From the NCBI GenBank assembly GCA_963514005.1, contig OY740802.1, forward strand, positions 38,998,001 to 39,062,000: DNA of 64,000 bases, in the 5' to 3' direction. This document shows positions 4,385 through 64,000 of this stretch, piece after piece. The notes under the pieces were generated by a model that had not been told where the DNA came from, did not search any database, and was given only the letters and a program-made list of their open reading frames with translations. How positions within the stretch are numbered: position 1 is the first letter of the stretch; each line of letters opens with the position of its first letter. The DNA is from Raja brachyura. Taxonomy: Eukaryota. The translations under genes and the position numbers were made by a program.

Positions 4385-4412
4385 CTGAGGAAGGGTCCCA
4401 ACCTGAAACGTC
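4385..4412 (+). ncRNA. Minimal hammerhead ribozyme-like motif (PLE-associated), sense to host gene
   Basis: CUGAGGA-A-GGGU(CCCA)ACCU-GAAAC-GUC. Confidence 0.5.
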
Positions 4413-5093: not shown

Positions 5094-6982
5094 GTCTGAC
5101 TGGATTGTTGTCCAGGCTAGAAGTGTTGAATGGCCGCCCTCTTGCTCTTGTGTTCCAGCTGTGTGGATATTGGAATGTTTTCTGATTATCTACGTCACAG
5201 TCACTGTTCCAGTTGTTTCAAAACCAATATTGAGGCATGGGCCCAGCACGAGTCCTCTTGATGGGTGTGCTGGCCTGTGTTGTTGTTGACAGCACAGCCT
5301 TGGAGATGCTGGTGCATGTGCTGGAAAAGGTTACATCCTGGGCCAAATTGGCTGAAGTCTGACCTTTTCCCTGTACAAAATGTTCTAGTGAGTTAATAGT
5401 CTAATTATCCTACAGTCAACAATCATAACAGGCCAGCATGACGAGACCTCTGAAGTGCTTGTGGCGATGGGGACTGATTGGCATCCCGCAGTACAATGAC
5501 ACCCTTTCAATTACGGCCATGATTATCTTATTGACAACTCTTGCTTCCTTCCTTCCTTCCCATCTGCTTTGTTCTCAATGAAGCTCGAGATTTTTCAACA
5601 ATTTTGTACCATTTCCAAGAAATAGATTTTGCAGGATGCTTAATTGTTGCAATTGACTCGCGACCTTTGAAGATTGTAGAAGCTTCAGAATGGAGGGGGT
5701 TGGGTGGACTACTCTCGGTCTCCCAGCTAGGTAGGAGGCCATTTGGCCCATCATGCTTGTGTTGGCTTTTTTTGAGTGTGTTGCATAACTCGGTTGCTCC
5801 GATTTCCCATTGGCCTTACAAATTGTTTCCTTTACAAATATTTATGGGGCCTAACGGGAAAGTTACTGTTTGTTGGGATTCACCGTCCTCTGGGGCAATC
5901 ACATGTGCCAGTGTGGCAGGATGCCATTTTTCCCCACATGTCCGCGCTGCCTCTGTGCAAGAACAGTCCGAGTCGACTCCTCTGCCTCTCTCCCCGTAAC
6001 TCTGTGATTTCCTTCAAACCCCTTTCATTGTGTTCCAGATTGCCTCAGCTCACTGTTTTTATCTGTAATGTTTACTAAACCACCTGCCACTCGGAACAAT
6101 TTCTCTTTAATAGTTCCATCACCATCCTTGCCATTAAATGCAGATATCAAAGCAATTGGCCAGAGATATTTCTGGTGTGTATTTGGGATAATTGGGAACT
6201 TATTGTGTGCTGAGCATGCCTGATGGGGAATGAAATGATTGTGGGGGGTATTTGAATAAGCAGGGCTTCCCGGGCAGAGTGATGTGTGGGAAGGATGTCC
6301 AGAACCCAGTTGGCCGATGGCAGTGGACAATCACTTGTGTAGGATGCAGAGTGCTGTGGAGTTTGCTGCGAGTCTGACACTGCACCCACCCTCTCTGCTA
6401 AACCAACCCTTGGTGTGAATCACACCTTCTGGGTGCATTCAGTAGACTAGCTGTGGAATTGAACCACCGCTGCCTTTTACAAACCAGCCCTTGCCTTTGC
6501 TTGTGTATGAAGGAACATGCAAATGTTGGTTTAAACTGAAGATAGACACAAAAAGCCGGAGTAACTCAGCGGGTCAGACAGCATCTCTGGAGAAAAGGAG
6601 TAGGTGACGTTTCGGGCCTCGACTATTCCCATTCCTTTTCTCCAGAGATGCTGTCTGACCTGCTGAGTTACTCCAGTTTTTTGTTACTATCTTTGATGTT
6701 GCTTGACTTGCAGTGAAATGTGTTGGTCCCGGGCATTGCAGGTTCAACTGTTGCAGCAATTCAAACCCGCCTTCCCCTCCCTATCAAATTTCAATTGTGC
6801 AAAGGACATCAACGGACACTGAAAAGGGGTCTCGACCTGACACGTCACCCGTTCCTTGACTTTCGAGGTGCTACCTGTGCCACTGAGTTAATCCAGCATT
6901 TTGTGTCTCTTCGATTTAAACCAGCATCTGCAGGTCTTTCCTGCTGTCCCAGGGCCAGGGACGGGAATGCTCAGCTTCTGAC

Positions 6983-12720: not shown

Positions 12721-15700
12721 AGTCCTTTGGTTCTTGAACTGGTGTCGAACTACATCTATCTTTGAGTCACTTGATCTTTGCTTTGCTTTATCACGAGGTG
12801 TGAGTCTTATTGATTTGATGTGGGATCTCCAGTCATGGGGATTTGATAGCTTGCTTGATTTGTGGTGGCATGTGGAGAGGGCGAGTAATGAATCCTTGAT
12901 TGTTTCGATGTTGTCTCTGGGAGTTGTGTATCAAGCTCTGCCGTTCATTGGCTCGGGCGAGAAAAGCAAAGTCTTGCATTCACTTGCATCCTTATGCGCC
13001 CCTCTTTAGGATAACCAGGATGTTTCACTGCCAGTGAGCTACTGATGTAGGAAACGGCAAAAGTGCAACCCAGCAGGCTTCCACAGGTAGTGAGGTGATC
13101 ACTTGCTCCTAATGTTGTTTGACGGGCTGGGTAATGGGGAGAATTCTCCAGCTCTTTTAAAATAATGTTCTTGCTCCAACTCCCTCTGGTGGGTAGGCAT
13201 CTCATCCGAAGATGGCATCATTTTGCACAGCTTGGATTGTGCTACAAACAGGTTTGCACTTTTTGTCCATTGATGTGTCCACTAGTCCTTCAATTTGAGT
13301 GCCTTGACCAATAACCCCAGATGTTAATTTTACATCACACCACGTTTGCATAAGAATTTGAATCCCTTTATAAAATGAAAAAAATGGTTTTGGCAAAAGT
13401 GATGGTCATGTCGGTCCATCAGACATGTGGCCCCTGATGTTGTTGGTGTTTTGATTGATGGTACGAGCAGAAAGTGGAGATGCCCAGGGCTGTGATGTGG
13501 GTGATCAGGGAGGGGAGACTGGGATTGGCGTAAAAGCCATTGAGATAGGAAAGTTGCCTTTCTCATCTGGCCCACATGTTCTCCCATCCATGTTCTCCAT
13601 AGATGCTGCCTGACCTACTGCCTATTTCCTTCACTCCATAGATGCTGCCTCATCCGCTGAGTTTCTCCAGCATTTTTGTCTACTTTCGATTTTCCAGCAT
13701 CTGCAGTTCCTTCTTAAACACCGAGTTACTCCAACACTTGGTGCCTTACTGACCACCTGCCAGTGCCTTTAGGCTGAACTGGTGGTGATCCAACCACAGT
13801 TGTTTCAAGCTACTAAAGGGCCACAATACTAAGACTCCTTACAGCTGTACGGGAGTACCTTTACCTCTGACCACTCTCAGCAACCAGGAATTGCTCTTGT
13901 GAGGAGCACGTCCTCTACCCTAGCACCCACCGTTGTGGACATTCATGTACCATACTGCCCTACTTTGACAAAAGGAAGCAACTGACAGAAAGGCGTTTTC
14001 TTGTAAATGAGGAAAAAGTGTTTTTCTTTCAGCTCTCTGTGGTGGAATTTCTTACTTCTCTGGTATAAATATTTTCAAATTGTACTCTGCGAAGGACTTA
14101 TTTTGTTCACCATTGTGTAGAGCATACCTCAAATACCCTAAAACAAGTAATAACTCAATTTTGACAAAACTGTCAGTTGCTCCCTTTTGTCAAATTAGGG
14201 CAGGATACGCTTCCCGCTTCCCTCACAAACCCCTTGGGGCCCGTTGCGTTCTAGAACGTAGGTCCAACCAGTTCCTCTCCTCCACCTTGTGGATTAAAAG
14301 CTGGATAAATGAAGAGTCTCAATATGAGAAGTTAACTGTCCATTTCCCTCCACAGTCGCAGCCCGATCCACTGAGTTCCTTCAGCAGCTCGTTTTGCTCC
14401 AGATCTGTAGTGTCTTGTGCTGGCAATATTGGTAAATTGCCTTGATCTGTGACTGGGAGCTGCCTAATCCATGCATGTACTGACAACATAGTAACTAGTC
14501 TACCCAAGTAAAATTGCTTTTTGTGAAATACAGGTTCATACAACAGCTACTGCTACCTATTAGACAGAGTCAGATGCCCTCTGTCTATTTTGAGTGTGAC
14601 TCTATGTCGAAGATCCAGGGGATTTGGTAATGGGGGATAGATCCCTGGAATTATGGGGAGTGGTGGAGTCGGGAGACTGGTACCTGCTAAGGAGACGGGG
14701 GAGGTATGGCAAGATATTCCAGGATTGATTTACGGATTTGGAGCAGGGGAAGAGTGGCTTGCTTGAGTGATGTTGAGGGGCTGGAGACAACACTGGGCTT
14801 TCACTCACAGCCAGGAAGGTGATGGGAAGATTCATTGACACGTGGAGTTGAGATCTGAAATGGATCGGCTCTCACTGGCTGAAGCGGCAGAGAGGAGCGA
14901 TGAAATCTGCTGCTTAAGATTGGGAATGTATCACCCTAGGGGTTTCATCAGCAACAGTTCCTCAGTTGGTAATCTCCTGCACCAACAAGGCCAAGGCCAC
15001 CAGATGGAAGGGGAGGACTCCAATTTCCCTGTGGGTCCAACAGGCTTTGAACATGTTAAGTAGTTTCTTCACTGAGTCATAAACCTGGAGTTTCCTACCA
15101 ACATAAACAGGAGGTTGCAAGAATGCCACAAGTCCTCAAGGCTGAACCTAACCACTTCCTGCTCCATCCTTGGATCCCTCTTGTTGTTTAATCATTGGAT
15201 CTGGGCTATGATTATGACTAACGCATTCCTCCTGTGGTAGAAAATGTTTGACAACCCATGGGGGAAGAGATTTTTCTTTATCCCATTCTTAAATGGCTGC
15301 CTAATTCAGAAAGGGGCCCTGGTTCCTGGATAGCTGCCAAGGGAATCTGACTTGCATTTACTCTGCTCAGGAGTTTGCCCTGATGGTACAACCGAGCATA
15401 CAGCAGTGGATTAAGCGAGGCCCTTGCCATCTATGGGTAGGAAGGAATTCCTGGCATTACCCACTGAATGCCCTTGGGGGAAGGAGGGGAGCTGAAACCC
15501 ATTGTATGGAGTGAGGAATCCACTGAGCCCTGGTCTGAAGATTAGGCCATTATGGTCCATAGAGAGTTAAGTTATGGTGCTCTGGGATTTACAGTATGGT
15601 TTAATTTCTGAGTTCCCATTACTATAACAGGGTAAGTATGCAGTGCCTGAGATAAGCAATTACAAGCAGGATTCTGTGTAGGTGCACTCCTATCTCAATA

Positions 15701-21584: not shown

Positions 21585-21856
21585 TGAGGAGCATGATTTT
21601 TGCATAATATGCATAGTTGGCTTTCATTGGGAAATATTCCTGTTGACTTTGTCCTAAGTACAACTCCACTTTGGTTGATCTCGCAGGTTAAAACAAAGTG
21701 TTGATATTTTGTAAACCCTGTACTTCATTACACCTGTAATCTAAACATTGAGGATAGGGTGCAAGACATGTTTCTGTACATTGACACTTGGCAGCAATCT
21801 GTCCGTGTCAACGCACTCCATATACACCTGCAGTGTAATCTCCCCATCTATTTTTA

Positions 21857-22040
21857 AATGCTGGAGTAACTCAGCGGGACAGGCAGCATCTCTGGAGAGA
21901 AGGAACGGGTGATGTTTCGTGTCGAGACTCTTTTCTTCAGTCTGAAAGAAGGGTCTTGACCCGAAATGTCATCCATTCCTTCTCCCCAGAGATGCTGCCG
22001 GTCCCGCTGAGTTACTCCTGCATTTTTTGTCTATCTTCAA
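21857..22040. mobile_element. Palindromic PLE-derived short element
   Basis: aatgctggagtaactcagcgggacaggcagcatctc...gagatgctgccggtcccgctgagttactcc, with degenerate hammerhead cores back-to-back at the centre. Confidence 0.75.
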
Positions 22041-22431: not shown

Positions 22432-22590
22432 GTGCCGTTGTGGGTATTGTACAAAATGCCAGACAGCACAATTCCTGTGCAAGGACACAAATCACACACA
22501 CACACATGTGTGCGCGCGTAAGAGGGTGTATGATTTGTGCCCTTGCACAGGAGTTGTGCTGTCTGGCATTTTGTACAATACCCACGGCAC
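22432..22590. repeat. Long inverted repeat (60-bp arms, 26-nt spacer)
   Basis: 22440-22499 is the reverse complement of 22526-22585 with 3 mismatches; gtgccgt/acggcac extend the stem. Confidence 0.93.
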
Positions 22591-23363
22591 TCTCCCCGAG
22601 TTGATTTATATGCTGACTTTATATTTTTCTCCCCAAGGAAAGATGAGAAAGCATCAGCCAAATCAGCCCTGACACAGGCAGCACCCTCTGAGCCAGACTT
22701 GAGGACAAGCACTGATTTTTTAAATTAATTTTTACACAAAAAGTATCTTTTTACATTTCTGCAGCTGAAATGGCATAAATGCAGCTCCCGCATGTTAATG
22801 AGAGAACTGCAGCCTCTGCTTGCCCGAGTGCTTTATCTGTTCTTTGTTACGACTGTCTAGACATGATGCAGGTTCTGCAGGTTTTACCCTTCTGTTGATT
22901 AATTTGTCGAGAAGGAAACCCAGTCGATTTTGCTCATTGAGTGACTCTGTCACTCATTCTCCCACTCCACCTTTTGTGTTTGAGTGTGCGTGTCTGCTCG
23001 CCCTTGTGTTTTAAAAAAAAAACCTCACCCCCCCCACCCCCACCTCTAATAGGGTTCAGCATTTAGATGAGCAAGCAGAATTTTACAAGAGGGGGGTATT
23101 TTCCTGCAGATATTCGGAGAGGAAAAACAACTTAATCTGTGGTGACAATTACATCTGGGAGGACGAGTCTGGGTTTTGTTTGTGGTGTTGATGGGGACAT
23201 GGGTGGAAGGTCACCTTGTGGTGGAGCAAGACTAAATGGTGGTTGTCTCCTCTGTCTGCAAGCAGGAATGCCTTCTCACTGCTGTCTTTCCAATAGTTCA
23301 TATAAAATGTTAGATTCTATATAATTATATGGAGCAAAGATGTAATGCTAAGTTTAGAACTTG

Positions 23364-23660
23364 CAGAATAATGAAAGGTATAGATAGAGTGGATGTGGAG
23401 AGGATGTTTCCACTGGTGGGAGAGTCTAGGACCAGGGGTCGTAGCCTCAGAATTAAAGGGCGCACTTTTAGAAAGGAGGTGAGGAGGAACTTCTTTAGTC
23501 GGAGGGTAATTAATCTATGGAACTCATTGCCACAGAGGGCTGTGGAGGCCAAATCGGTGACTATTTTTAAGACGGCGTAAGACAAATTCGGAGATCAGCC
23601 ATGATTGAGTGGACTCGATGGGCCAAATGGCCTAATTCCACTCCTATAATTTGTGACCTT
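23364..23660 (+). mobile_element. CR1-clade LINE 3' fragment
   Basis: IMKGIDRVDVERMFPLVGESRTRGRSLRIKG...FFSRRVINLWNSLPQ in ORF 23329-23580. Confidence 0.85.
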
Positions 23661-37570: not shown

Positions 37571-39944
37571 TCATAAGTTCAGAAGTCATAGCAGAACAAG
37601 ACCATTCAGCCCATTGAGTCTACTCCGCTACTAAACCGATGGAGACTTGAGTGGTGTTGCTGGCACTCCTGCTCGCAATCACTGATGCCTTTTGCTGGAG
37701 GGTGGCATGGAATTGTAGATCTTACTTCAGGTTACAGAGCAATACTGAGGGCAGTTGATGCACCGCAGTCAGTCACTATCCATTCTTTGAGGCAAATTCA
37801 CCCGGACAACTGTGTGCAGCAGTCTTGAATACGTATTTGTAAGGAATGCACATTGTTCATGATTTTGCACATGGCAATTGAATCCAGATGAGTTGACAAC
37901 AATGTCGTCAGACATCAGGTACTCAGAACCTCGCTATTCAGTTGTTGTTTCTCACTACCTCACATCTGCTGATCTGTCGCTACAGACTAGAAAAATAAAT
38001 GCTTTTATAATCCACTGCAGCCTTTTCTATCTGGAAATCCATGCACAAAAGGACTTCAGGGCACAGTGCTGCATTTAATGACGTCTCGCTGCTGAGTGAA
38101 GTAAAAACCTGTGCACCTTTGCATAGAATTGCACATCTCGTTTCTCCTTTCAAGTATGAAAAGGACTAGATTTTTATTTTCCCCAAATATACCTGGATTC
38201 TTTGAGTTCCTACTGGCATCATTCTTCCCACCCCACCGTCGCTGTCTCCATCCGGCAGTGGGTCGGTAACAGATAACGACATCCTTCTCGGTTCTGCTTC
38301 CCAATTGTTCCTCAGGAGTGTGTGTAAACTTTTTAAAAATTGAATCTGAACCGCGGAGGTAATAAGGGAAATAATGTAGGTCAAATGATAGATGTGAATA
38401 GAATATTAGAGATGGGGCAGGAGGTGGAGTGGTTTTGTTTTTCCAGAGCTTTGGGGCATTGGGATCAGGAGAGAATGCCCCCTGTAGTGCAGCCTTGACT
38501 ACTGGGGATCCATCGAAGGCCAGAACCTGCAGAGTGTAATCCACAGATAAGTCTAGAGGAGGTTTCAACTAACTGGTGACGCTACTGGAGTATGAAAACC
38601 TGTTTTATTTCATATTTGACAGAACCAAATTTGTTATCTTCTGATCTACCTTTCCTTTTTAATAAATGCAGAGTCGAATTTGCTACCACGTGGAGAGGTT
38701 GAAGCTAATAGCACAGATAAACACATGAGGGAGGAAGGAAATAGAGGTATGTGCAGATGGGGTTAGATGAAGCGAGTTGGGAAGAGACTGGTTTGGAGCA
38801 TAAATGACAACATAGACCAGTCGAGCTACATGGCTGTTTCTATGTTGGCCGTTTTATCGAGACCTAGAATATTTACCAATGCTCGATTTGTTCTGGATTT
38901 GAGGGGACAAGAAAGACGTCTTAAGCAAAACAGACAAGCAAACCTTCTATTGTCCTGAACATGAGGGGCCATTTCAAGACCCTCTCCCATGTAGTTCTGA
39001 TGGTCATCTCAGGCTGGCAGAGGAGAGAATAAAATTCCAGGCTCTTCCCATTTATTATTTCAACCTGATTATCGTCAACATGCATTGTTCAAAGTATTCA
39101 GAAGTCTTTAAAATTTTATATATATATATATATTAGAAACTGTCCATTTTTCACCATTTCTCATCGTAAATTAATTGAAAATGCTCAATTAATGCATTTC
39201 TTTCAGCAGATATTTATTTCTGGCCGTGATATTCTTACTCTTGTAGCTTCCATTTGTGTAGTTGTGTCCACAATGACTCTGAGCACTCCAATACAATTCG
39301 ACAAACTGGTGAGCACTGAAGCAGCAAGGATTCTGTTTCCAGGCACATGCCATTAACGGCAGTGAATGGCCAGATTGCTTCTTTTCTTTTGCCGGCGATC
39401 CATTTGAGAGGTTCAACAAAATGTCTTGGCACGCTCTGCCGAGCAAGGAGTTCACACACAGTGCCCTTACCATCCCTCATCAGAACACAATGAGGACTCC
39501 CTTGCCATCTGCAGTGTGCTGATGACATCTACCTGAGTCCCATCAGCTGAGCAGAGCCTGGCTTCAGCAGCTTCCACAAACAGAGCAACAAAAGGGAGGA
39601 ATTTTCACCACCTCCACCGCACTTACTTCACTTCTGAAGTGCTGCCACGAATATGGTGTAAGAAAGGCAACAGTAAATTTGTGCATTAAAAGGATTCCAC
39701 AGACGTGTGTGATTAATAACGAGGTTTTCAGCAAAGTGACCGCATCACCCAGAGACTAGGGGGTCAGTGGGTCAACCATTCGATGAGATGTTAATTTGTG
39801 CTCAGTAATCTTGGATTGCAAAGGAACTGCTTGTGGGAAGTCTCCATGGGTGTCTTCGCCAGTATTAATCCCTTGGTTTATTATTTATGGGGTTGTGCTG
39901 TGTGCAGGTTGCTCTTCGGAAAATATTCACCAGTTGTCTGTGGT

Positions 39945-40186
39945 GGACAAAAATGCTGGAGAAACTCGGCGGGCGAGGCAGCATCCATGGGACGAAGGAA
40001 ATGGGCGACGTTTCGGGTGGAGACCCTTCTTCAGACTGGTGTGGGGGTGGGGGGAGCGGGAAGAAGAAAGGAAGAGGTGGAGGCTGTGGGAGAGTTGGGA
40101 AGGGCAGGGGAAAGAAGGAGAAAGCAGGGACTACCTGAAACTGGAGAAGTCAATGTTCATACCACTGCGGTGTAAACTACCCAATT
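39945..40186 (-). mobile_element. PLE 3' fragment with intact hammerhead-like core
   Basis: Reverse-complement homologue of 49790-50010 (ggagaagtcaatgttcatacc...tgtaaactacccaa). Confidence 0.78.
40007..40034 (-). ncRNA. Minimal hammerhead ribozyme-like motif (PLE-associated)
   Basis: Minus strand reads CUGAAGA-A-GGGU(CUCC)ACCC-GAAAC-GUC: CUGAnGA box, 4-bp stem II, GAAA box and palindromic ACGU/GUC cleavage triplet. Activity not shown. Confidence 0.65.
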
Positions 40187-40247
40187 GCCTGTGTGTTTTG
40201 ATCTAGTCTCTGATTCAGGAGGATGCAAGGTAAATGTAGGTCTGCTG

Positions 40248-40442
40248 AAGATAGACACAAAAAGCTGGAGTAACTCAATGGGTCAGACAGCATCGCTGGA
40301 GAAAAGGAACAGGTGACGTTTTGGGTCGAGTCCCTTCTACAGGTGTGAAGGAGGGTCTCGACCAGAAACGTCACCTGTTCCTTCTCTCCAGAGATGCTGT
40401 CTGACCCATTAAGTTACTCCAGCTTTTTGTTCCTTCCTACAC
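40248..40442. mobile_element. Palindromic PLE-derived short element
   Basis: Inverted arms; 16-bp TSD aaatgtaggtctgctg (40232-40247, 40443-40458). Confidence 0.82.
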
Positions 40443-43400
40443 AAATGTAGGTCTGCTGTTCTTTAGCACTGCACAAGCCCGTAGCATCTCTTTGTTATTC
40501 TGTGTCGAGGTGAGCTTTGATGCAATCGCTGGCACATTGTAATGCAGGTGATAGAATCCAGATACCTCCACCTCTCCAATCAGAAATTAAGTAATGAGCT
40601 GGGTCTGGCCTAACTCCCTGAAGCAGCATGGTCTCCTTGCATTGCATGTGAAGAGCTGGCTGCAGGGGTAAACACTCCCCTCTGTTAGAATGGATCAGTG
40701 AGTGGTGGCTTTGGATAAACGGATTGGAGTTGCACAGTGTAGAATCATTGAACGTAGAATGGACCGTTGCTGGCAAATGGAATTAGCGTAGATGGGCACT
40801 TGCGCTACAGCCTGGACATGAGGGGCCGAAGGGCTGTCTCTGTGCTGGATGACTCTATGGCTCGATTTGCCTCACAGACCATTACGTCTGAGAAATAAAA
40901 AAATAAGGCACCCGGCTTAATCCCACCTTTTGGAGACTGGGTCTGTGGCTTTCCAGATCACAGCTCTGCAAATACATACGTACCCAGGAACTATTTAAGT
41001 ACAGTGGGGGTTACTGCCTGTACCACACTCTCGGGCAGAGTTCCACATACCTCCTACTATATCTTTTAATTTGTGTGTTAAAATACAACACTCACTGCTC
41101 TCCCCTCTAATCTTCCTTCAAATCACATTATATCGATGTTTCCCTTGTATTTGACCCTGGGGCTAAGGAAAATGCCCTTCCTATTCACCGGCTTGACCCC
41201 TTCTTGCTCATTCCCACTCCAAGTGGAGGGGTGACAGTCCAGGGTGGTGATTAGAACCTCCGGCCTATGCACAGAGAGCGCATGGAGGGCTCTGCATAAG
41301 CTCACAAACTGCACACCCGCCCAGCCCAGCCCAGCTGCGGCAGAGTCTACTCTTCCCACATTGGCCTCATTAGCTTACCCACAAAACCCACGGGATTTCT
41401 AAGAAGATGATGGAAGCCCTTCATAATTAATTTTTTTTACATACACTAATTATCTCTCGCTCTCTCTCTCTCCCCTCTTCACCATCCTCTATAAAGAAAA
41501 CAATCCTGGCCTATCCAATCTTAACGACGACAATTTTCCTAAACTAACTGTATCCTAATAAATCTCTAACCGTTCTCCAGCACATTCGTATACCTTCCCT
41601 GTGATGTTATGACCAGACCCCATGCTCCAACTGTGGGCTAACTTCTAGCAGAAACCCCCAACTATGGCATGTTTTTTTATCTGAACTAAGTCATTGGGAA
41701 CAATTATTTGGAGGTGAAGAGTTCTTTGGACTGAATCTTTTGCGTTCCCCCATGTTCCCGACTCCTTCACGGCAATCAAAATGCCAATTAGTAAAATTAT
41801 CGTGCTAGGGTCATAAGAGGCTGTTTCAATTTTCTGAGTTTAACCAGCGCTGTGAAAATCCACCCCTGGAGGTACCTGAGCAGGTTGATGTGCATTTAAA
41901 GGCCCCTCACTCACTAGGATGAAAGAACTATATGCTGTGAATATTATCAAAGCTGTTTTTGTTCCATTGTGCGTTGTTGAATGGTTGGTGCTGCGCGGTG
42001 CTGGCAGGTAAAGTTCCGCTTTCCCTGTCGCCAGCAGGGTGGAATGTTCCCCGAAGCCACTTTAACCCGCGCTGCGTGAAATCTCCCGAATCCTTCGCCG
42101 GAACGCAGCGAGCTGGTCGGAGGAAGTGGCCGCTTGGGGAGACAGAGGATAAATGAATGTGTGGGCCCAGCCAAAAGTGAGTCAGCAGGGAACTGATCGT
42201 CAGAATGTAAATGAGCTCTCTCCGCCGTCGCGCCACGTAGAAAGCCATCATTAACCCAGATTAGATTTTCATAAAACTCAGACAGTTTAAGGTTTTAATA
42301 CCTGATGTTTGCATGCTGCTCAGACAGCTGTGGGAGTGCAGAGTAATGGGATAGTTTTGGGTAAGCTGTGGATGGCTATTGTTTGTCATAACATTTTTAA
42401 TGTTTTGTGCACACAGCCATTGAAAGTCACACTGCTAGAGTGGATTGGGCAGGATTCCAGTCTCTCTCCTTTTCATTCTCTCCTGTAGCCTCTGTCTTTT
42501 TTCCTTCTCTTTCTTTGTCTTTTTTTAATTTATTTCTTTTCCCCTTTTCTCTTCTGTATTTCTATTGCCAAAGTGACTCTGCTAAAACAGAGCTGTTTAA
42601 AAACCCATTCCAGTCGTCAGTAACGTGGGGACCGCAGGAGGAGCAAATTAAACCCATTGCCCAAACTATGCAGTGAGATTATTGGCAGGGTGGAATTGGT
42701 GCAAGTGTGCTTATCTCCAGGAGAAAGATGAAAGGAACACATGGTTGCATGGGCCTGAAGAAGGGCCTCGACCCATTCCTTCTCTCGAGAGATGCGGCCT
42801 GTCCCGCAGAGTTACTCCAGCTTTTTGTGTCGATATGATTACAGCGCTTTGCTTGAAGATCTAAACGTCGATTAAGCTGCATTTGTTGGGTTTTTTCCCT
42901 TTTGTTCCCTCCCAGACTCTGCCCTAGATCTCATAGTGATGAGCACTCTGGAACCCAAACCTCTGGCGATGCTGCCGCCCTTGTCCACACTGACGGGTTT
43001 CACACTCCATGCCACACTTTCTCGCACTCATTAAACATCCAGGCCAGGACCTGAGTTTCCATTCCCACTTCTCCATTGTCCAGACTATTTTTTTTTAAAA
43101 AAAGCTCTAGCTGCAAGGTGGCAAGGATAATCTCAATGCTAGAAATGGGAAACAAAAAAAGGCTTTGGTATTCGAGTCACTCGGCGTCTGAAAGAGCTTG
43201 TGTGTTTGGCAGAAGACAATCGAGGGTGAAGTGAAATTGATACAGTTAGTCACGCAGTATGGGGATGGATGCAAAACAAAATGGTGATACAGGGGTTTAA
43301 AAGCTTGCATTTCCTAAAATATCCCATCTCCGGTAGATAAGCGATGGAAGTTGAGGTGGGGGAGTGGCAATCAGCCAGGCTTCCTCCCACAATCATTGTC

Positions 43401-48450: not shown

Positions 48451-49137
48451 CGCCTCTGACCAACTTCAATAATTCTGCTCTTCCCATTTTTATTTCTAAC
48501 CCATTGTTTTTCTGTAATTATTTCTTCTATTACTTAATCTTTTCCTCCCTTTTTATCCTGTAGATGCTTCAATGTTTTCTGCATCTTAACTGTTTCGTTC
48601 TCCACAAATGCCACCTGACCCATATTTCCAGCATTTCATTTCTGTTTCCCCCCCCCCCAATTTCCACCTGTTCCTGGGATCTGCTGCTCTCATGGACTCC
48701 GAGTCGACCGGTCACACCTTGAGTGATTCTTCGTGCCTTGTCAAAGCCGTTCCGTACCAAACACAGGGCAGACCCTTCCTTGCCAGTCGGTGCTGCACTG
48801 GAATAGTGCCAGACCCATCCCTACCAGTACTGTATTGCGTTGTAAAGTGCCAAACTCATCTCTATCAGGACTGTAGCCAGTGTTGTACAGTGACAGACCT
48901 GTCCCCATGAGGACTGTACCCAGTGTTGTACAGTGACAGACGTATGCCCACCAGTACTGTACTGCTGTGTAAGCAAGGTCCTTGCCGCCAGCTTCGAAGG
49001 TGCTTGTGACATGGGTGGTGCCTTGTGATGAATGGAGAGTTGTTCTCTGGCATGAAGTGTCCATCGGTCGGTGAGCTTTTCCAGGTTTGCTCCCTGCAGC
49101 GTCTCACTCACATTGCCCTTCTCTTTCTGTGTTGCAG

Positions 49138-49292
49138 CTGAGCTGGAGTTTGTGCAGATAATCGTGATAGTGGTGGTGATGATAGTGATGGTGGTGGTGA
49201 TCACCTGCCTCCTCAACCACTACAAACTCTCCACAAGATCGCTAATCACCAGACAGAGCCAAATGCGAAGGCAAGAAGGCAACCTGCAGTCG
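49138..49292 (+). CDS. pmepa1: Internal coding exon (transmembrane exon) of a PMEPA1/LDLRAD4-family gene, most likely pmepa1 exon 2
   Basis: Pyrimidine tract ctctttctgtgttgcag acceptor and gtaag donor at 49293. The exon is 155 nt, phase 1 to phase 0, and translates (x)[51 protein letters not shown]. This matches the recalled PMEPA1 [34 protein letters not shown] segment. Paralog LDLRAD4 is not fully excluded. Confidence 0.9.
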
Positions 49293-49631: not shown

Positions 49632-50044
49632 TCCTCCCCTCAGTTCGCAATAACCGACCTGATCTCCCGGTGGCTCAGCACTTCAACTCCCCCTCTCATT
49701 CTGAATCCGACCTTTCTGTCCTGGGCCTCGTCCATGGCCAGAGTGAGTCCCGCTGCAAATTGGAGGAGCAGCACCTCACATTTCGCTTGGGCAGTTTACA
49801 CCCCAGCGGTATGAACATTGATCTCCAATTTCAGGTAGTCCCTCCTTCCTCTCCCGCAGCCTACTATCTCCGCCTCTTCCTTTCTACTTCCCGCCACCCC
49901 CCCTCCCCCACATCAGTCTGAAGGAGGGTCTCAACTCAAAACGTCGCCTATTCCTTCGCTCCATAGATGCTGCCCCACCCGCTGAGTTTCTCCAGCATTT
50001 TTGTCTACCTTCGATTTTTCCAGCATCTGCAGTTCCTTCTTAAA
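49632..50044 (+). mobile_element. Penelope-like element (PLE) 3' fragment: GIY-YIG C-terminus plus terminal repeat
   Basis: PDLPVAQHFNSPSHSESDLSVLGL...KLEEQHLTFRLGSLHPSGMNID is typical of PLE endonuclease ends. It is followed by the same short repeat seen throughout the window. 12-bp TSD caaagtccatag (49620-49631, 50045-50056). Confidence 0.82.
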
Positions 50045-50796
50045 CAAAGTCCATAGCAGCTTGTTGCTGAGGAAGGGCTGTGGTGCAGCTGAAGAACTGC
50101 TTTTTGCAATACAATGCATTTGCGATTATCATCGTAGGGACTCTACCGCCTAATACATACTCAAGGGCCAGCTAATCTGTCCCTAGTGATGTTCATTGGG
50201 GCAAAAATGTTTCACTAGTTGAAGGAGCGATCTCTCATAGTCTGTGTTCGGTTGCACCACCTGGAGCAGCAATGTGAAGCTGCAGCATAGGGCTGGCAAT
50301 GCAGGCTCAGTGCAGGGCTCAGACCGAGAGTGTCGGTGGAACTTCACTCCACAGCATCAGTGTCTGAGGTCAATTCTACCAACAGTTGACGGCAGGCTAC
50401 CTGCCCAAGCACTCTCGGGAGATCAGGGTTCAGGCCCAAACCAGCAAATCACAGTAAGCATTTTGGATGTCTCTCCTGGCCTTTTATAATATGTAGCTGC
50501 CCTGCTCCTCCCCACCCCAGCTCCTGGGGGCCGGTGCACGGGGTAAACTTGCACGCGTGTATGTGTGTGTGTTTTCCGTCTCGCTGCCAGCACTGGAGAG
50601 GGAAGTAAATGTAGAGTTGGTTGCAAGTTTTGGGGTAGAGGTGCTGAGCTACGACTAAGCAATACGATGACCTGCTTTAATGTTTGGGTTGTCATTGCTG
50701 TCGCCACTCTACAGTGCAGACACGTTGGGGAGGGCAGTGAATAACTGCCTGCCTACCTAGACCAACCTATCTGCCTACCTACCTGGTTTCTGGTTG

Positions 50797-51089: not shown

Positions 51090-52831
51090 GGTGCAGTCGA
51101 CGCATACAGCGGTGGGAACGACACCGGAAGGCTTTGCTCTTGCACCGTCTCCACAGTGGCGACTATTATCGCTGATATACATGCGCTGCCGTTCCCAGAG
51201 ACGCGGCTCCACATTGCATCCTCCCCGCTGGCCGGTGTGCCTCTGCAGCAGATGTACTCCCAGCTGCACGTGGAGCTGCTACAGATGGGAGTGGGCAGAT
51301 TTACTCTGTGCAGTATGAAAGTGACCCAGATAGTGAGGCTGCTTGTGTGGAAACAGTCTCACCTCAGTAACCTGAAAGGTACAAATGACCTCCACGTTGA
51401 ACAGTAGATCCTACACGTGAGCACAGTAGGAAATGACAGTTCCATTAATCAGGACTAATGCCTCAGCGGTAGATAGATGAGCAGACCTTGATCTGAATCC
51501 TCGGGCAGGACCAGCAAGTAAGTACCCCATTGTACTGGGAGAGTGAAGGCATGTGAGTTAATGCCCCTGTCACTGGGACAGGGCGCGTACACCTGGCTCA
51601 GATACACCTCACCAACTCCATCTGTCCTCCTGTCTTTGAAGAGACGACACACCACGTCACATCTCCCTGACATTGCTCCTGTGGTATCAGTGTGTTCCTA
51701 AAGTCAAGACCATTTCTACTCTGGAATCTGCAGCACAGCTCTCCTCGCCAGCAAGCAATGTTCAGACTGATACGTCCCTGTTAACTAATCCAAGTTGGCC
51801 ACAGGTCACCCGCCCGACAGTTGCTGTCATCAGTCAGCTGCTGCTGCCTCCCATCCGGTCGGGAGGCAGGGTCGCTGTGAACCTGCCTGGCTTCCACCGA
51901 CCCTGTAGCCCCGGCCCAACGAAACATGGGTCCGGCCAAAGACTGGCTTCACTCCTGACCGGGGAAATGAAGCAGAGTGGGGGGGGATGATGCGACACGT
52001 TCAGTTCCACTCCCGGCCCCGTACTGTACACGGCCCTGTTTCACACAGTGGAGCAGTGCTTGCCCCCAGCTTGGTGTGATCCGTACCCCCCCACAGATCC
52101 AGGGTAAAAGTCGTTCTACCCCTGCAATCTGCGAATGACTCCCGGTCTGGGGCCTTGACAAGAATCGGGGAATCAGGGCAGCATTTAATCCGGGAGCTAT
52201 CTAGACAGGGTTAACTTGTTTTCCCTGCTTTGACTCCTTGAACGACACCAACTCCCATCTTGCAATGTCATTAGCATTTCTTTTCACTGCATTCCCAGAC
52301 TTACACGTGGCACTAGCTTCTATTTGTAACCCTTTCTGAACCACTTTCTCATCGGTTTTAAGTCTTTCAACACTGGCAATGAACCCCAAACTGTGATAAA
52401 TCCCTATTAAACTTCAGCAGCGACGTCTCAAACTTCTGGGTTGGCTTACGAAATATTGGGGTCAGATTTAAACATTAGACTAGATTCTCTTCCAGTCTAA
52501 TTCTTACGTCATTCCAAAGGTATTTTCTGTCGGAGGGTGCGTTTTCTCCAGTCTAGAAATGACTAAACTTGCATTAAAAGTGTGTCACAGGAATTTGTGT
52601 ATCACTTAAGTCTCTGCTATGTAATTTTTAAAAAAAATGAGCGCAGCTGGCCCCAAAATGATCCTTCAAGGAATCTGATTTGTGTTCCCTTTGGAAGAGG
52701 AATGAGTCAGGAAGCATAGGCTCAGACCTGTGTATGATTGGCACCTCCATACTTTGGGGAAATCACCTGTGACTTTGAAAGCTGAGTAGTTGGGAGTTTC
52801 CTGCAATTCCCCAAACCCCCTCGACATGAGT

Positions 52832-52942
52832 GTTAAAGAAGGAACTGCAGATATTGGAAAATCGAGGGTACACAAAATGCTGGAGAAACTCAGTGGGTGC
52901 AGCAACCTGCTGCGCCCGCTGAGTTTCTCCAGCATTTTGTGT
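52832..52942. mobile_element. Palindromic PLE-derived short element
   Basis: Perfect 16-bp TSD ccccctcgacatgagt (52816-52831, 52943-52958). Confidence 0.82.
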
Positions 52943-54146
52943 CCCCCTCGACATGAGTCCTGGCTGAATATTGTACAGAGCACTGGTGGCATTGGATAGA
53001 CACCAAAAGCTGGAGTAACTCAGCGGGACAGGCAGCATCTCTGGAGAGAAGGAATGGGTGATGTTTCGGGTCGAGACCCTACTTCAGACCGACTGGGGAA
53101 ATGAGCCAGAGTTTAAGGAAGATCTGACTTGTTCATTCCTTCTCTCCAGAGACGCTGCCTGTCCCGCTGAGTTGCTCCAGCATTTTGGGTCTATCTTCGG
53201 TATAAACTGGCATTTACATTTCCTTCCCTACCCACAATGGTATGTAACTGCTGCTCCAGTTTGGGGTGCAGCTGAACAACAAGGGCAGGGCATTGTGTCT
53301 TGTAGTGGAGAAGGGTAAGGCAAGCTGACCAACCTGTTACTGGAACAGCAGCCTCCTGTGACCTTGCCTTGAGCTCTCCAGTGGTCCCCCTGCAGTCACC
53401 ATGATTGTGCTTGACATTTCTCGGTGCACCTGCGGTTTTGCTCCCTGCCAGCCGTCCCCTGCCATTCCTGCACAGATGCTTCCCGGCAAGCCTGTGTGAG
53501 TGAGAGTGTGAGCAGGGGGGTGCATATCCATTCATGCTGCATGCAGTTCTTTCTGCTGTGTGTTGTGCTGTGCCGTCTCAGTGGGATCCAGGTGTTGAAG
53601 CTGTGCCTGAAGGTACAGAATGCTCCATTTGAAGCACAATACCCCCCCCCCCCCCCCTTCAAATCTCCAGCCTATAATAAATCCTTGGCAATATCAAGGG
53701 AGTTTCATGCCACCAGAGCCAAAGTCTTTCTCGTGCTGTTTCTGGACGGCACAGGTTACAGCCGTTAGAGCTGCAGCTCATAGAGCTAGTGACCTGGGTT
53801 AAATCCTCACCTCAAACGCTGTCTAGATGGAGTTTGCATGTTTTCCTATGACCATGTGAATTCCCTATGCATGCTCCGGTTTCCTCTCGCATCCCAAAGA
53901 CGGGTGACTCCGAGTCCACAGTAAGGATCATTTGGTTCAGGTGGATGTAAGCAAATCCCATGGTACTGTTGGGGCAGAGGAGCATTGTCGCAGGTGAGCT
54001 GTCCAGTACCTCTCTGCCAGAACACTGACAGACATCAATGCTGCTCTGATCAATGCAAACAGCTGCTTTGTTTCCTACATTTACAATGTCGAATAATTCA
54101 ATGATGTTAAACAACCAGCGGGCATCCAACCTACTAAATAATGCCG

Positions 54147-54573
54147 CGTAACTTAGGTCTTTATTCTTTGGAGCGCAGAAGGTTAAGGGGGGACTTGATT
54201 GAGGTCTTTAAAATGATGAAAGGGATAGACAGAGTTGACATGGATAAGCTTTTCCCATTGAGGGTAGGGAAGATTCAAACAAGAGGGCATGACATGAGAA
54301 TTAAGGGACAGAAGTTTAGGGGTAACATGAGGGGGAACTTCTTTACTCAGAGAGTGGTGGCTGTGTGGAATGATCTTCCAGCAGAAGTGGTGGAGGCAGG
54401 ATCGATTTTAACATTTAAAAGTAAAGTGGATAGGTATATGGACGGGAAGGGAATGGAGGGGTATGGTCTGAGTGCAGGTAGATGGGACTAGGGGAAAATA
54501 AATGGTCGGCACAGACTGGAAGGGCCGAGAAGGCCTGTTTCCATGCTGTAATTGTTAAATGGTTATATAGTTA
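54147..54573 (+). mobile_element. CR1-clade LINE 3' fragment, same family as 11498-12226
   Basis: ORF 54141-54491 LGLYSLERRRLRGDLIEVFKMMKGIDRVD...; 3' tail tggttata-like. Confidence 0.9.
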
Positions 54574-55418: not shown

Positions 55419-55446
55419 GACGTTTCAGGTTGAGACCCTTCTTCAG
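55419..55446 (-). ncRNA. Minimal hammerhead ribozyme-like motif (PLE-associated)
   Basis: Minus strand reads CUGAAGA-A-GGGU(CUCA)ACCU-GAAAC-GUC. Confidence 0.55.
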
Positions 55447-57165: not shown

Positions 57166-59288
57166 GTCACTTCTCAATCCCAGGATCAGCGAGAGGCTCC
57201 TGAGCGCACCTGCTTCCTGTAAAAAAGAATGGCCAAGATTTGTTTGGAATGGGTCAGTGGTTTAAAATCTTTTTGGAGAGTGCCTTTATCAACTTTTGTT
57301 GTTCAGTCGAATATCTCTTCACAGCCCAGACACTTGTAGACGCTGTTGATCAATGGATAGAAGGAGAAAATGCTGTGTGCTTTTCATTTTGACTCCTTAT
57401 CCTTTAGTATGAACATTGCAGCCATTTGCATAGTCTATGAATGTTGCTTTTATTTGTTGCGTGTCTGGCTCTGATGACAATCCATGTATTGAGATAAATA
57501 GAGGGAGTGGAGGAAGGAACTGCAGATGCTGGTTTACATCGAAGATGGACACAAAATGTTGTAACTCAGCGGGACAGGCAGCATCTCTGGATAGAAGGAA
57601 TATGGGTGCCATTTCCGATCCAGGCCCTTCTTCAGACCCAGGTGTCGGCCCCATTCCCTCCTATCCAGAGATGCTGCTTGTCCCGCTGAGTTACTCCAGT
57701 ATTTTGTGTCTAATTAGGGAGGGAGTGACTGGGAATGACAGACACCAGAGTGGGATTAACTGGGGCACAGTGGACACCACAGAATGAAGAGATCCTTCCC
57801 CAGGGAGGGGGTATATTGATCCAATGTACTGTGTTCCTCCTGCGAGAGAACCCTGTATACTATTTTGGAAAGGGCTGTAAATTATTTAATGCCTTTATGC
57901 AACAGCTGAGTTAGAGATGTGGGTGGGAGCGCTGGGAGGCAATTGAATGTTCAATGCTCTTATAAAACAGCTCTGTGGGCTTTGCATTCCTCAATGATAC
58001 ACAGCCTGCAGGATACGCATGGCCACTCACTGCTTCATCCTCACTCCCACGTGGACTTTTCTTAGCGCTAAACCATAAGAACAGAAAATGGGTGCAAAAA
58101 TATACCACTCAGCCTCTCATGCCTGTATATGTATCATGGCTGATCAATGCTGGCCTTGACTCCTCTTCTGTGCCAGTTCCCCATAATCCGCAGGCCTTGC
58201 TTCTGAATTGTCGGCTTTCAAAAATACTTACTCAAATATCTTCAGTTTTCAAAAAGGAATGAACAGATTGGTAATGGTTTCCTATTGTCATGTGTTCTGA
58301 GGTGCAGTGGTAAAACGTTGGTATCCAGGCAGATCATGTCATGCATCAAACCAAAAATACCGGTGTTCAGAATATAGTGTCACAGCTACAGAGAAAGTGC
58401 AGATAAATAAAATGCAAAGGCTGCAACATGATAGATTGGAAAAACCGGAATGAATTCTCAGCGTAGAGAGGTACGTTTAAGCATCTGATAAGAGTGGAGA
58501 AGAAACTATACCCGAATCTGGTGCTACAATACCAAGCTTTCAACCTTTTGTATCTTCTGCCCAACATGATCGGGATGCGAGTGGTCTTTGTTTCTCATCA
58601 TCATAATCATACTTTATTAGCCAAGTATGTTTTGCAACGTACGAGGAATTTGATTTGCCATACGGTCACACCAATAAAAAGCAACAAGACACAAAAAAAT
58701 ACATTTTAACATGAACACCCCCCACAGTGATTCCTCCACATTCCTCACTGTGATGGAAGGCGGGACAAAAACCCCCAGCTGTTGGCTGCTTTCCCAAGGC
58801 AGCATGAGGTGCAGAAGGAGTTGATGAGAGATTGCTGGAGTTGGATTGTAGAACACGTTCACCTCCTTTCCCTCTGCTCACTCTCACACCCTCCTGTCCC
58901 ATGTCCACTATGGGGTATGCTCATCACTTCCTCACTCTACCCTGGGCCTTCTCTGCTGGCTGGGGTGGGAGAGGGAGCAAGAACCTGTCCCTTTCCATCT
59001 GGCCATGGAATGAAGTGGCCTGGGAGAAGTTCACCAATGTTGTTGAACCACACAACTGCTGGATCAGGGCAACGTACAGATTGTAAAGGACAGGCTAAAC
59101 ACTGGGATCGAGCGACGGTGGGGTTTTGCCTGGGGCATTTTTAGGCTTTGTTGTGCCTGTAAAGAATAAGGAATAATTGATTAAAGAAAGTGTGCAGTGT
59201 GAGAGAAGAGAGACAGATTTAGGGCCAACTATTTTGTGGAAGATAATGGGCAAGCTGGACTGTTTGCAACAAATCACCTGTCTGTGCT

Positions 59289-59508
59289 TAAGAAGGAACT
59301 GCAGATGCTGGACAATCGAAGGTAGACAAAAGTGCTGGAGAAACTCAGCGGGTGCGGCAGCATCTATGGAGCGAAGGAAATAGGCAACGTTTCGGGCCGA
59401 GACCCAAGGGTTTCGGCCCGAAACGTTGCCTATTTCCTTCAACGTTGCCTATTTCCTTCGCTCCATAGATGCTGCTGCACCCGCTGATTTTCTCCAGCAC
59501 TTTTATCT
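59289..59508. mobile_element. Palindromic PLE-derived short element
   Basis: Near-perfect inverted arms; 13-bp direct repeat acctgtctgtgct (59276-59288, 59509-59521). Confidence 0.8.
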
Positions 59509-59987
59509 ACCTGTCTGTGCTGCAGTTCAGACCCCAGAGCAGCTAATGAGAGATGGTACAATTTCACTCAGCTTCTGGTTACCCAGTCTGATGCCCAGCC
59601 CGTACCCAAGCAGAAAGTGTTTCAATCCTCAACATCATATTAACCAACATACGACGAGAGAGATGCTTGGAGCACAGTCACTGCTGCTAATCACATCAGA
59701 CAGTTTGCAGGCTGCAAGATTTCACAGTCTTCAATGTGGGAATACGGGATAATCTGTGTTAGGAATATTGATTGAATATTGCTGGATGAATACTGGCCTG
59801 GCCTTGGGAGAGGGAGCTGGGACGGGTGGCCTCCAGACAATTTCCCTGCTCCTGCCCAGCGTTGTACAACCATTCACTGCCACCAAGGAGTAAACAGGAT
59901 CATAATCGCTCGGTCGAAGGGGCATTGTCTATATTCTTCTGCCCTTTGAGGTTTTTAAATTGTCTGAAGAAAGAGTCATAGAAACAT

Positions 59988-60833: not shown

Positions 60834-61072
60834 AGGAAGGAACTGCAGATGCGGGTTTACACCAAAGATAGACACAAAATGCTGGAGTAACTCAGCTGGG
60901 TCAGGCAGCATCTCTGGAGAAAAGGAGTAGGTGACATTTCGGGTTGAGGCCCTTTTTCATTCTGCTTGCAGGAGGGAAGTCTGAAGACGAGTCTCGACCC
61001 GAAACGACACCTATTTATTTTCTCCCAAGATGCTGCCTGACCCGCTGAGTTACTCCAGCATTTTGTGTCTAA
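60834..61072. mobile_element. Palindromic PLE-derived short element
   Basis: tagacacaaaatgctggagtaactcagc ... gctgagttactccagcattttgtgtcta. Similar copies also at ~1-33, 3333, 6505, 6820, 13590, 32050, 36290, 42756, 52995, 55363, 56990, 57510, 61782 and 63167. Confidence 0.8.
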
Positions 61073-62089
61073 TTTCAGTTTAGTGGATCACTGACTCTTC
61101 TCCCGAGAGCAGCAGTCTGAGGTGCAGCTGGGAGATGACAGTTTTGAGACCAATCTCAACACTGGCTGCCAGAAGGTAAAGGGCAGGACCATAGATGTCT
61201 GGTGTTCTTGTCATTGCCAGGATGTGCATTGACAAAGCAGTAATACGTAAGGTGCTTCCACTTTGCATGGGCATCTGAGATCAATGTTTGCCACGGGGCA
61301 GCGCATGGGCTTTTGGGGAAGGGGCGATGAGGTGAGTATGTTAATGGGAGGATGCTGAGGAATGTGGAGAACAGGAACTTGTTCAGCCATCTCAACACAG
61401 CAAACCAGCAAGTTGGGTAAGAAGGCATCCAAGACTCTTAGGATGTGCCAGAGGTTCCCAACATCAGTCGGGGCAGTGTTGAGGCGCGGTGTACATTGCG
61501 GGAAGGATATGAGAGCGCTGCAGCACGACAGGGTTATACAACATGGAAACATGCAGCAGTGGTGTGGTGCAGAGCCGGGCAGTTTGAGTGGTCATTGGTG
61601 GGGAACATTGAATTAAGGAGTTTGCGTTTAGTTAATTCTCACGTGTACGGAGGCAGAGTGAAAAGCTTTTGTTGCCTGCTATCCAGTCAGCAAAATGACA
61701 ACACATGATTACAATCATACGATCCACAGTGTACAGATACATGATAATGGGAATAACATGAATAAGGTAAAGTCCGATCATGGAAGGAACTGCAGATGCT
61801 GGTTTACACCAAAGACAGACACAAAATGCTGGAGTAACTCGGCGGGTCAGGCAGCATCTCTGGAGAAAAGGAATAGGTGACATTTTGGGTCGAGACCTTC
61901 TTCAGTCTGATTGCAGGAGAGAAGCCTCCAATGAGGTAGATAGTAGCTCAGGACACACGAGTTGTGGTCGGACGGTACAGTTGCCTCGTGACAGCTGGCA
62001 TAAGCATCAGGGGACCAGAGGCCAAAAGAATGCAGAGGAAGACCAATATCTCGTGGCAGTCAGTAAATCGGCACGAGGCAAGAGGCTGC

Positions 62090-63532: not shown

Positions 63533-64000
63533 CACCAGATATACACGCCCAGGACGACAGACAGGCTGACGGTGCCGTCGTTCCTACACCGTGACCGCTT
63601 CAGCCGCTTCCAGCCCACCTACCCCTACATGCAGCACGAGATCGACCTCCCTCCCACCATCTCGCTGTCGGATGGTGAGGAGCCCCCTCCCTACCAAGGC
63701 CCCTGCACCCTGCAGCTCCGCGACCCCGAGCAGCAGATGGAATTGAACCGGGAGTCGGTGCGGGCTCCCCCGAACAGGACGATCTTTGACAGCGACTTGA
63801 TAGACACGTCGATTTATAACGCTGGACCCTGCCCGCCCAGCTGTAACTCTGGTGTCAGCGCCACCAGCTACAGCAGCAACGGCAGAATGGAGGGACCACC
63901 GCCCACTTACAACGAGGTCATCGGTCACTACCCGGGGTCGACGTTTTTCCAGCATCAGCAGAGTCACGGTGTCCACTCTCTGATGGGTGGAAGCAGACCG
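63533..64000 (+). CDS. pmepa1: Terminal coding exon (partial, runs off window) of pmepa1: cytoplasmic domain with PPPY, PPNR (Smad-interaction) and PPTY motifs
   Basis: Branch-like ctgac, then ctctcttctcttgtcttccag acceptor. Open frame of 156 codons: [144 protein letters not shown]... Absent from the ORF track because there is no stop codon in the window. Confidence 0.92.

Follow-up and report, generated by a model that had tools for sequence, protein, structure and literature searches.

What is the short repeat that recurs throughout a 64,000-nucleotide stretch of the genome of the skate Raja brachyura, and could it still act as a ribozyme? A preliminary description of this stretch, referred to here as the window, held that its commonest short repeat carries minimal hammerhead ribozyme cores, and the repeat does form the largest direct-repeat family of the window, with 21 copies. 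The loose pattern CTGANGA-N5-25-GAAAC matched nine times in the 64-kb window, compared to 1.05 ± 1.01 expected matches, and none of 100 shuffles reached nine. A full descriptor in the style of published minimal hammerheads (core, optional extra base, paired stem II, GAAA, paired positions 15.2-16.2, UH) was passed by exactly three sites, with C3 at 4385 (+), 40034 (-), and 55446 (-), and each of them has a stem I of 2 bp. Among 200 dinucleotide shuffles, 196 contained no site and four contained one, and a stem I of at least 2 bp occurred in none. As the copies in the window are not mutually independent, these shuffles exclude random sequence only, and the real test is homology. The matches to the loose pattern at 8361, 14965, and 59964 were attributed to chance; all of them fail the full descriptor.

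Residues are given below in the hammerhead position numbering. The three sites passing the descriptor are those initially described as intact, a label that applies fully only to the core at 40034, since at 4385 and 55446 a G10.1-U11.1 pair replaces the conserved G-C; even in the canonical core, stem I closes with U-G. Its predicted cleavage position lies between 40007 and 40006 on the minus strand, and it agrees with the consensus in Fig. S3 of PMC4209133. The core at 31456 to 31483 (+), formerly called near-intact, is present but failed the descriptor, with G16.2 changed to U. Every decayed core listed previously was located, and further decayed copies were found at 57635 (-), 42755 (+, with an internal deletion), 36412 (-), 1186/1200, and 59405/59406. 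An extra base between positions 9 and 10.1 is A in 16 of the 18 copies covering this position. The 10.1-11.1 pair is G-C in 14 of 20 copies, G-U in three, and unpaired in three, and the palindromic 15.2-16.2 pair of a helix III without loop is C-G in 13 of 22 copies and U-G in five. A third stem I pair is formed in only 3 of 16 copies. The descriptor and the copy counts thus support the earlier assignment to the minimal type I hammerheads of Penelope-like elements (PLEs), with an extra base after A9 and a palindromic 15.2-16.2 pair, and the estimate of about 2 to 3 bp for stem I can be narrowed to 2 bp in all three passing cores. An Rfam scan of the window gave no hammerhead match at E ≤ 5. 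The use of a contig variant table as proof that position 2.3 is always A was rejected; the change of A11.4 to G, which is common in the window, is absent among the variants listed there. Older, more diverged hammerhead relics are present at 14309, 54704, 62760, and 62165; their flanks hint at a stem I of at least 3 bp in earlier families, with both strands clean in no single copy. The features are collected in Table 1.

Table 1. Hammerhead cores, PLE-derived insertions, and host exons in the window
Feature	Position	Strand	Details
Focal core	40007..40034	-	C3 = 40034; extra A; 4-bp stem II with G10.1-C11.1; GAAA; palindromic C15.2-G16.2; C17 = 40007
Focal core with 2-bp stem I	40005..40036	-	U2.1-G1.1 wobble, G2.2-C1.2; next position A x C
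Descriptor-passing core	4385..4412	+	G10.1-U11.1; on the strand of the host gene
Descriptor-passing core	55419..55446	-	G10.1-U11.1; antisense to the host gene
Focal insertion	39942..40187	-	Last 18 endonuclease codons (40187-40134), stop, 96-nt UTR, hammerhead, 3′ end without tail
5′-truncated PLE insertion	31312..31585	+	Endonuclease end 31312-31368, UTR, core 31456-31483 with G16.2 to U, tail; 10-bp target-site duplication, 31305-31314/31581-31590
Longest PLE piece	49634..50047	+	64 codons of endonuclease C-terminus (49634-49825), UTR, decayed core 49918, tail; 12-bp target-site duplication, 49620-49631/50045-50056
Inverted pair, decayed cores, one-unit insertion	40248..40430		C3 at 40342 (-) and 40345 (+); 16-bp target-site duplication, 40232-40247/40443-40458
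Inverted pair, decayed cores	21856..22037		21940 (-), 21942 (+); fold-back at near-palindrome spanning the 5′ edge of the core
Inverted pair truncated within core	59290..59512		One-arm tail; 13-bp target-site duplication; 19-nt internal tandem duplication
Inverted pair, decayed cores	60835..61070		60961 (-), 60981 (+); one-arm tail
Two adjoining inverted pairs	52831..53227		52831-52951 with 16-bp duplication; 52995-53227 with decayed core 53087
Inverted pair	57512..57711		Minus arm spans decayed core 57635; plus arm begins 1 nt past predicted cleavage site; 9-bp duplication
Two head-to-tail pieces of different subfamilies	13580..13720	+	Each starts within about 1 nt of predicted cleavage site
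Inverted pair 6509-6699 and solo decayed core 6819 (+)	6509..6941		
Nested pieces	32030..32287		Inverted pair 32126-32249 within copy with decayed core 32287 (-)
Solo decayed core	61777..61912	-	C3 at 61905; tail present
Host exon, transmembrane segment	49138..49292	+	Splice-site scan
Host exon with PY motifs, PMEPA1/LDLRAD4 family	63533..64000	+	Runs past window end; Atlas feature scores 0.93 PMEPA1, 0.88 LDLRAD4

Searches with tblastn revealed PLE endonuclease ends at 49634-49825 (E = 3e-27), 31312-31368, and 40187-40134, and a weak, older one at 62583-62433. The preliminary description had a GIY-YIG C-terminus directly attached to the repeat at 31315, 39945, and 49632. Three endonuclease ends are linked to it, but a pyrimidine-rich UTR of about 85 to 100 nt lies between the endonuclease end and the hammerhead (96 nt from the stop codon to C3 in the focal copy), and 39945 is the 3′ end of the element rather than the point of attachment. 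The endonuclease part in the window comprises only the region downstream of the GIY-YIG motif; the motif itself and the RT are both absent from it. A 60-amino-acid piece at 49643-49822 shows 68 to 77% identity to four proteins, every one of them from skates. In the same C-terminal part of the skate homologues, Pfam recognized GIY-YIG with E values of 0.008 to 5e-5, one of three being above the curated cut-off. These homologues align with shark fragments and with RT-endonuclease (RT+EN) proteins of 576 to 894 amino acids, including, for the C-terminal part, RT+EN ORFs of 889 to 894 amino acids, and the piece in the window aligns to the C-terminus of the RT and GIY-YIG proteins P0005 to P0009. 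A zinc-finger-like CX2-5CxxC linker between RT and EN, which marks Neptune and Nematis elements according to PMC8557442, is present in the close skate homologues P0002 and P0003 and in P0006 to P0009; the linker region is not part of the window. We infer the autonomous parent from these relatives, because the 64-kb window holds neither an RT-coding part nor a full-length copy of the skate repeat family. In the insertions 31312-31585 and 49634-50047, duplications of 10 and 12 bp enclose the endonuclease end, the UTR, the hammerhead, and the tail, which must therefore have been inserted together. With the clade assigned from motifs and similarity, we consider it highly probable, taken jointly, that the repeat represents the 3′ end (pseudo-LTR) of an endonuclease-positive, Neptune-like PLE, that its copies arose by truncation, and that they are fossils.

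The C-terminus of P0005, a shark PLE read-through, is a peptide resembling an in-frame translation of the skate hammerhead, hinting that the same motif may occur in sharks. The endonuclease piece at 49644-49742 (+) contains a good splice acceptor and a good donor. All four skate protein matches are unrelated gene models to which a PLE endonuclease end has been fused, and exonization or mis-annotation must therefore be common; such fusions are a hazard for the annotation of skate genes.

A homology test was provided by eight related PLE loci (L001 to L008), all from one assembly, which were found among genome contigs by a protein profile scan with alignment A3. Their hammerheads lie 98 nt (L001 and L003) or 120 nt (L005) downstream of the stop codon, compared to 96 nt in the focal copy, and that of L008 is identical, letter for letter over core and stems, to the Acropora Neptune motif shown in Fig. 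S3 of PMC4209133. Across three families, five of nine pairs change on both sides and none of 500 shuffles reached the covariation score, although the set comprises eight rows with few events, the skate rows being the least decayed ones, and kinship alone can beat such shuffles. In the cross-family alignment pairing was 91%, compared to 13 to 46% in slid controls. Within the skate repeat family (22 rows), by contrast, none of nine pairs showed a compensatory change and only wobble-type changes were seen, as expected for dead copies derived from few parents. The lack of stem II covariation, which had been named beforehand as an argument against a hammerhead, thus applies within the family but not across the three families.

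Could the motif be hammerhead-like merely by chance, its many copies reflecting the amplification of one repeat? All copies in the window stem from few ancestors, so that the shuffle tests overstate their independence, and neither the covariation within the family nor the Rfam scan speaks for a ribozyme. However, the invertebrate homologues keep the motif at the same distance from the endonuclease stop, with stems that differ and are nevertheless paired, which makes this explanation extremely improbable; from positional homology and cross-family covariation, a chance resemblance appears to be already largely refuted. Searches for the DNA motif in metagenome, genome, and viral contigs gave no matches, protein scans of three collections with P0005 yielded no loci, and alignment A3 found none in viral contigs. 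The assembly containing L001 to L008 is titled as a bacterial metagenome-assembled genome (MAG), but must carry eukaryotic contigs, as eight animal-type Penelope loci were found there. L001 has an additional minimal hammerhead at 4739 to which no endonuclease is tied.

The copies in the window range from 25 to over 410 nt in length and have variable 5′ ends; endonuclease-coding sequence is clear in three of them. Their 3′ ends are bimodal, 21 of 42 being located at +80 to +104 and 17 of 42 at +115 to +134 from C3 (rows scoring below 40 were left out, and one piece was counted twice by realignment). Inverted pairs account for 12 insertions; in nine of them a single arm carries a tail, in none do both arms, and all their junctions differ. 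The tail-bearing arm is on the minus strand in eight of nine pairs (p = 0.04), a post hoc observation that is not used as evidence. Target-site duplications of at least 8 bp were present in 7 of 23 insertions (5 of 12 pairs and 2 of 11 solo copies), compared to 3 of 300 random spans; for the focal insertion, none above chance was found. A PLE 3′ end and its flank are locally duplicated at 4433-4480 and 4839-4889, about 406 nt apart. For PLEs, 5′ truncation, 5′ inversion, and a one-sided tail of 30 to 40 bp have been described as signatures (PMC8557442), and the tail length corresponds to the gap between two reverse-transcription start sites (PMC11167929). Towards its 3′ end, the element consists of the endonuclease stop, about 95 nt of UTR, the minimal type I hammerhead, and then either about 65 nt or, with the tail, about 100 nt. 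The protein of the element would prime reverse transcription at one of two sites about 30 to 40 nt apart, and copying towards the 5′ end would usually halt or fold back near the hammerhead, giving rise to short solo or inverted copies.

A hidden Markov model built from eight copies detected 50 pieces in the window at E ≤ 0.01, 26 on the plus and 24 on the minus strand, which together cover 3,908 bases or 6.1% of it; 16 copies in the 64 kb span the core from C3 (7 plus, 9 minus). More than 100,000 sequencing-run contigs were placed on 39750-40550 in each of three runs, and 12,896 in a fourth. In run X1, the summed contig depth was 3.3 million over the hammerhead compared to 6.3 on the flank, and in three runs the ratio of the two was 0.8 to 5 x 10^5, a ratio that is not equivalent to copy number. 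The density in the window, 16 core-spanning copies per 64 kb, corresponds to about 2.5 x 10^5 per Gb, with three passing cores per 64 kb, and agrees with the contig depth ratio in order of magnitude. Contigs of run X7 connect the 5′ edge of one hammerhead (40036-40039) to a position just past another (40004), with 1 to 7 letters in between that mostly equal the natural 3′ flank. These joints suggest that rare head-to-tail hammerhead doublets with a period of about 38 to 41 nt may exist elsewhere in the genomes.

The preliminary description had proposed a non-autonomous ribozyme-bearing family of very high copy number. Such a separate family is not required, because 5′ truncation, 5′ inversion, and an optional, one-sided PLE 3′ tail explain the copies and are all described PLE signatures, and we consider it rather unlikely that the short copies constitute a SINE- or retrozyme-like family of their own which derives from the pseudo-LTR, is transcribed from a point just upstream of the hammerhead, and is mobilized in trans. 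No tRNA head was found, and a tRNA-SINE reading was rejected. Among 39 hand-curated 5′ ends, from which the three endonuclease-bearing copies were left out, 15 fall within -10 to +1 of C3 compared to 5.4 expected, which fits a short self-propagating unit. However, an ordinary PLE transcript whose 5′ pseudo-LTR is copied should give such a pile-up, and so should fold-back at the near-palindrome at the edge of the core. In run X1, the contig depth decreases by a factor of about ten over the 5 nt upstream of C3 (5.0 million at 40019, 0.5 million at 40039), although this drop is in part a consequence of differing upstream sequences among subfamilies. Loose-end consensuses upstream of C3 agree poorly (0.39 to 0.41), the commonest subfamily lacks upstream endonuclease sequence in the window, and PLE-derived retrozymes, including a chondrichthyan one, have been described (bioRxiv 10.64898/2026.07.22.740005). 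Against a family of this kind, no tandem array of hammerhead units was found in the 64-kb window, and the differing junctions of the inverted pairs argue in the same direction.

The 5′ ends also bear on the question of whether the hammerhead was active in the RNA of the element in vivo, so that cleaved RNAs served as templates and many insertions end at the cleavage site. Of the 24 ends downstream of +1, five lie at +27 to +30 around the predicted cleavage site, compared to 1.3 expected (p = 0.008; p = 0.03 with respect to all 39), and both pieces of the chimera at 13580-13720 start there. In Anolis, the PLE hammerhead cleaves when the protein of the element is present (PMC11167929). The sample, however, is small and hand-curated, four of the five ends begin one base late, stem I has only 2 bp, and stalling of reverse transcriptase at a structure or microhomology yields the same pattern. 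Moreover, Anolis RNA-seq reads neither began nor ended at the site, and insertion in vitro proceeded without cleavage (PMC11167929). Use of cleaved templates can therefore be put forward as a tentative lead, for which we see a limited chance of being correct. Less probable still is the wider proposition that skate genomes contain on the order of 10^5 or more hammerhead PLE ends, possibly the densest vertebrate ribozyme-derived repeat, with 5′ ends piling up at the cleavage site. If this were true, the repeats would be a fossil record showing that the PLE hammerhead, even with a stem I of 2 bp, cut the template RNA in vivo, and would settle a step of the PLE cycle left open by in vitro and RNA-seq work.

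The window contains part of a host gene on the plus strand, to which the exons at 49138-49292 and 63533-64000 belong; the former we take to be of the PMEPA1/LDLRAD4 family. A small exon expected between 49292 and 63533 was not found, nor was a first exon in the window, and 1-49137 would be an intron of this gene. The preliminary description had suggested that sense-strand copies could cleave the host pre-mRNA if still active. In folding predictions, the stem I pairing probability was at most 0.01 in all five copies folded at three lengths, and the hammerhead-like fold was 5 to 7 kcal/mol above the minimum. The predicted double-hammerhead folds had -6.5 and -2.3 kcal/mol in the skate compared to -20.9 and -24.7 kcal/mol for invertebrate motifs. 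In the copy at 31456, a rival 6-bp hairpin is predicted to occupy the GAAAC strand, and constrained folding of three copies revealed no consistent distal extension of stem I. At non-CpG catalytic positions, 17 of 206 cells deviate, compared to 15 of 164 at free positions (p = 0.85) and 26 of 132 at CpG positions (p = 0.001); as catalytic positions decay like free ones and CpG positions faster, there is no sign of selection keeping or destroying the core. The core-spanning copies show no strand bias (p = 0.80).

According to PMC4209133, minimal hammerheads showed no in vitro cleavage as single units and poor cleavage as dimers; of nine Xenopus hammerhead dimers, one cleaved (bioRxiv 10.64898/2026.07.22.740005), and cleavage by the Anolis hammerhead needs the protein of the element (PMC11167929). 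In the parent element, the hammerhead would most likely cut the RNA of the element itself, weakly and with assistance from dimerization or a protein. Cleavage of host RNA is unlikely, because stem I has 2 bp and is predicted to be unpaired, two of the three cores have G-U, the canonical core is antisense, and the decay is neutral; the genomic copies appear to be fossils without appreciable cutting of host pre-mRNA. One passing core, at 4385, is on the strand of the gene, and conserved intronic hammerheads are known in amniotes (PMC6155905). However, this core combines G-U at 10.1-11.1 with the 2-bp stem I in a class of hammerheads whose single units were not seen to cleave in vitro. As the window revealed no first exon, the position of this core within the transcript is only putative. 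With the missing strand bias and the neutral decay, an effect on the gene by cleavage at sense-strand intronic copies is very improbable, and the earlier suggestion is not upheld. Inverted pairs should form hairpins in the host pre-mRNA in either orientation.

Several further features were noted in the window. Pfam gave no match for 100 of the 108 stop-to-stop frames of at least 100 amino acids. LINE ORF2 3′ ends, presumably CR1/L2-like, are located at 11574-12277 (-), 54138-54488 (+), and 23314-23577 (+), and the segments 11496-11913 and 54149-54566 show 89% complementarity over 418 nt. Long inverted repeats or GC- or CpG-rich elements unrelated to the PLE are present at 3453-3820, 8112-8210, 22436-22589, and 1500-1900; they are probably MITE-like, and Rfam microRNA matches within them are below the gathering scores. 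Two related copies of a GC-rich repeat (25400-26600 and 27100-27650) contain open frames of up to 237 amino acids without Pfam match, and a 43-nt tandem repeat with 3.7 copies (48805-48962) is located just upstream of the host exon.

Judged by its testable features, the skate motif belongs to the minimal hammerheads known from PLEs, with a stem I at the lower end of their length range. No published report of hammerheads in skate PLEs was found in a search that did not extend to subscription journals and Repbase, where the repeat may well be catalogued. The known association of PLE pseudo-LTRs with minimal hammerheads is thereby extended to a skate-like genome, and its value lies in the scale. 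As the role of the PLE hammerhead is unsettled (PMC8557442, PMC11167929), it is useful that the family size permits computational tests of whether insertions stop at the cleavage site and of whether introns have lost intact cores on their sense strand. Intronic expansion of Penelope-like elements has been reported for the whale shark (bioRxiv 10.1101/443036).

The closest counterparts are the minimal hammerheads of metazoan PLEs (Cervera & de la Pena 2014, PMC4209133). These resemble the skate motif in the core, the extra base after A9, G10.1-C11.1, the palindromic 15.2-16.2 without loop 3, the location in a terminal repeat, and the predominance of single copies of truncated elements with some opposite-strand pairs. 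The skate motif differs in its 2-bp stem I, compared to 3 to 6 bp in most rows of Fig. S3 and 2 bp in a few (Drosophila, Culex, Oikopleura), and its 4-bp stem II is at the short end of the range. No cartilaginous fish is among the 40 species of Fig. S3 or in Table S1. The apparent, extrapolated abundance in the skate is far above the 4,000 motifs given there for the coelacanth and 9,000 for Xenopus; for axolotl, 126,247 canonical hammerheads have been reported (PMC7229834). With the Acropora digitifera Neptune PLE (PMC4209133) and the loci L001 to L005, L007, and L008, the skate element shares 42 to 50% identity in the endonuclease end, the same 28-nt core geometry, a 4-bp stem II, and a 4-nt loop, and its hammerhead lies 96 nt after the stop, compared to 98 to 120 nt; in these invertebrate motifs, however, stem I has 5 to 6 bp or more, and the double-hammerhead fold is predicted to be far more stable. 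The Poseidon PLE of Anolis carolinensis (PAc; Frangieh et al. 2024, PMC11167929) likewise has its hammerhead about 100 to 130 nt upstream of two alternative 3′ ends, but belongs to another PLE clade, and its cleavage was measured and is protein-dependent. Non-LTR retrozymes (PMC7229834; bioRxiv 10.64898/2026.07.22.740005) share the type I hammerhead and are high-copy repeats related to PLE pseudo-LTRs. They form head-to-tail arrays with typically canonical hammerheads, whereas the skate copies are solo or inverted, have variable 5′ ends, and can have endonuclease sequence attached; the skate family or a related one may be among the chondrichthyan retrozymes of the latter report.
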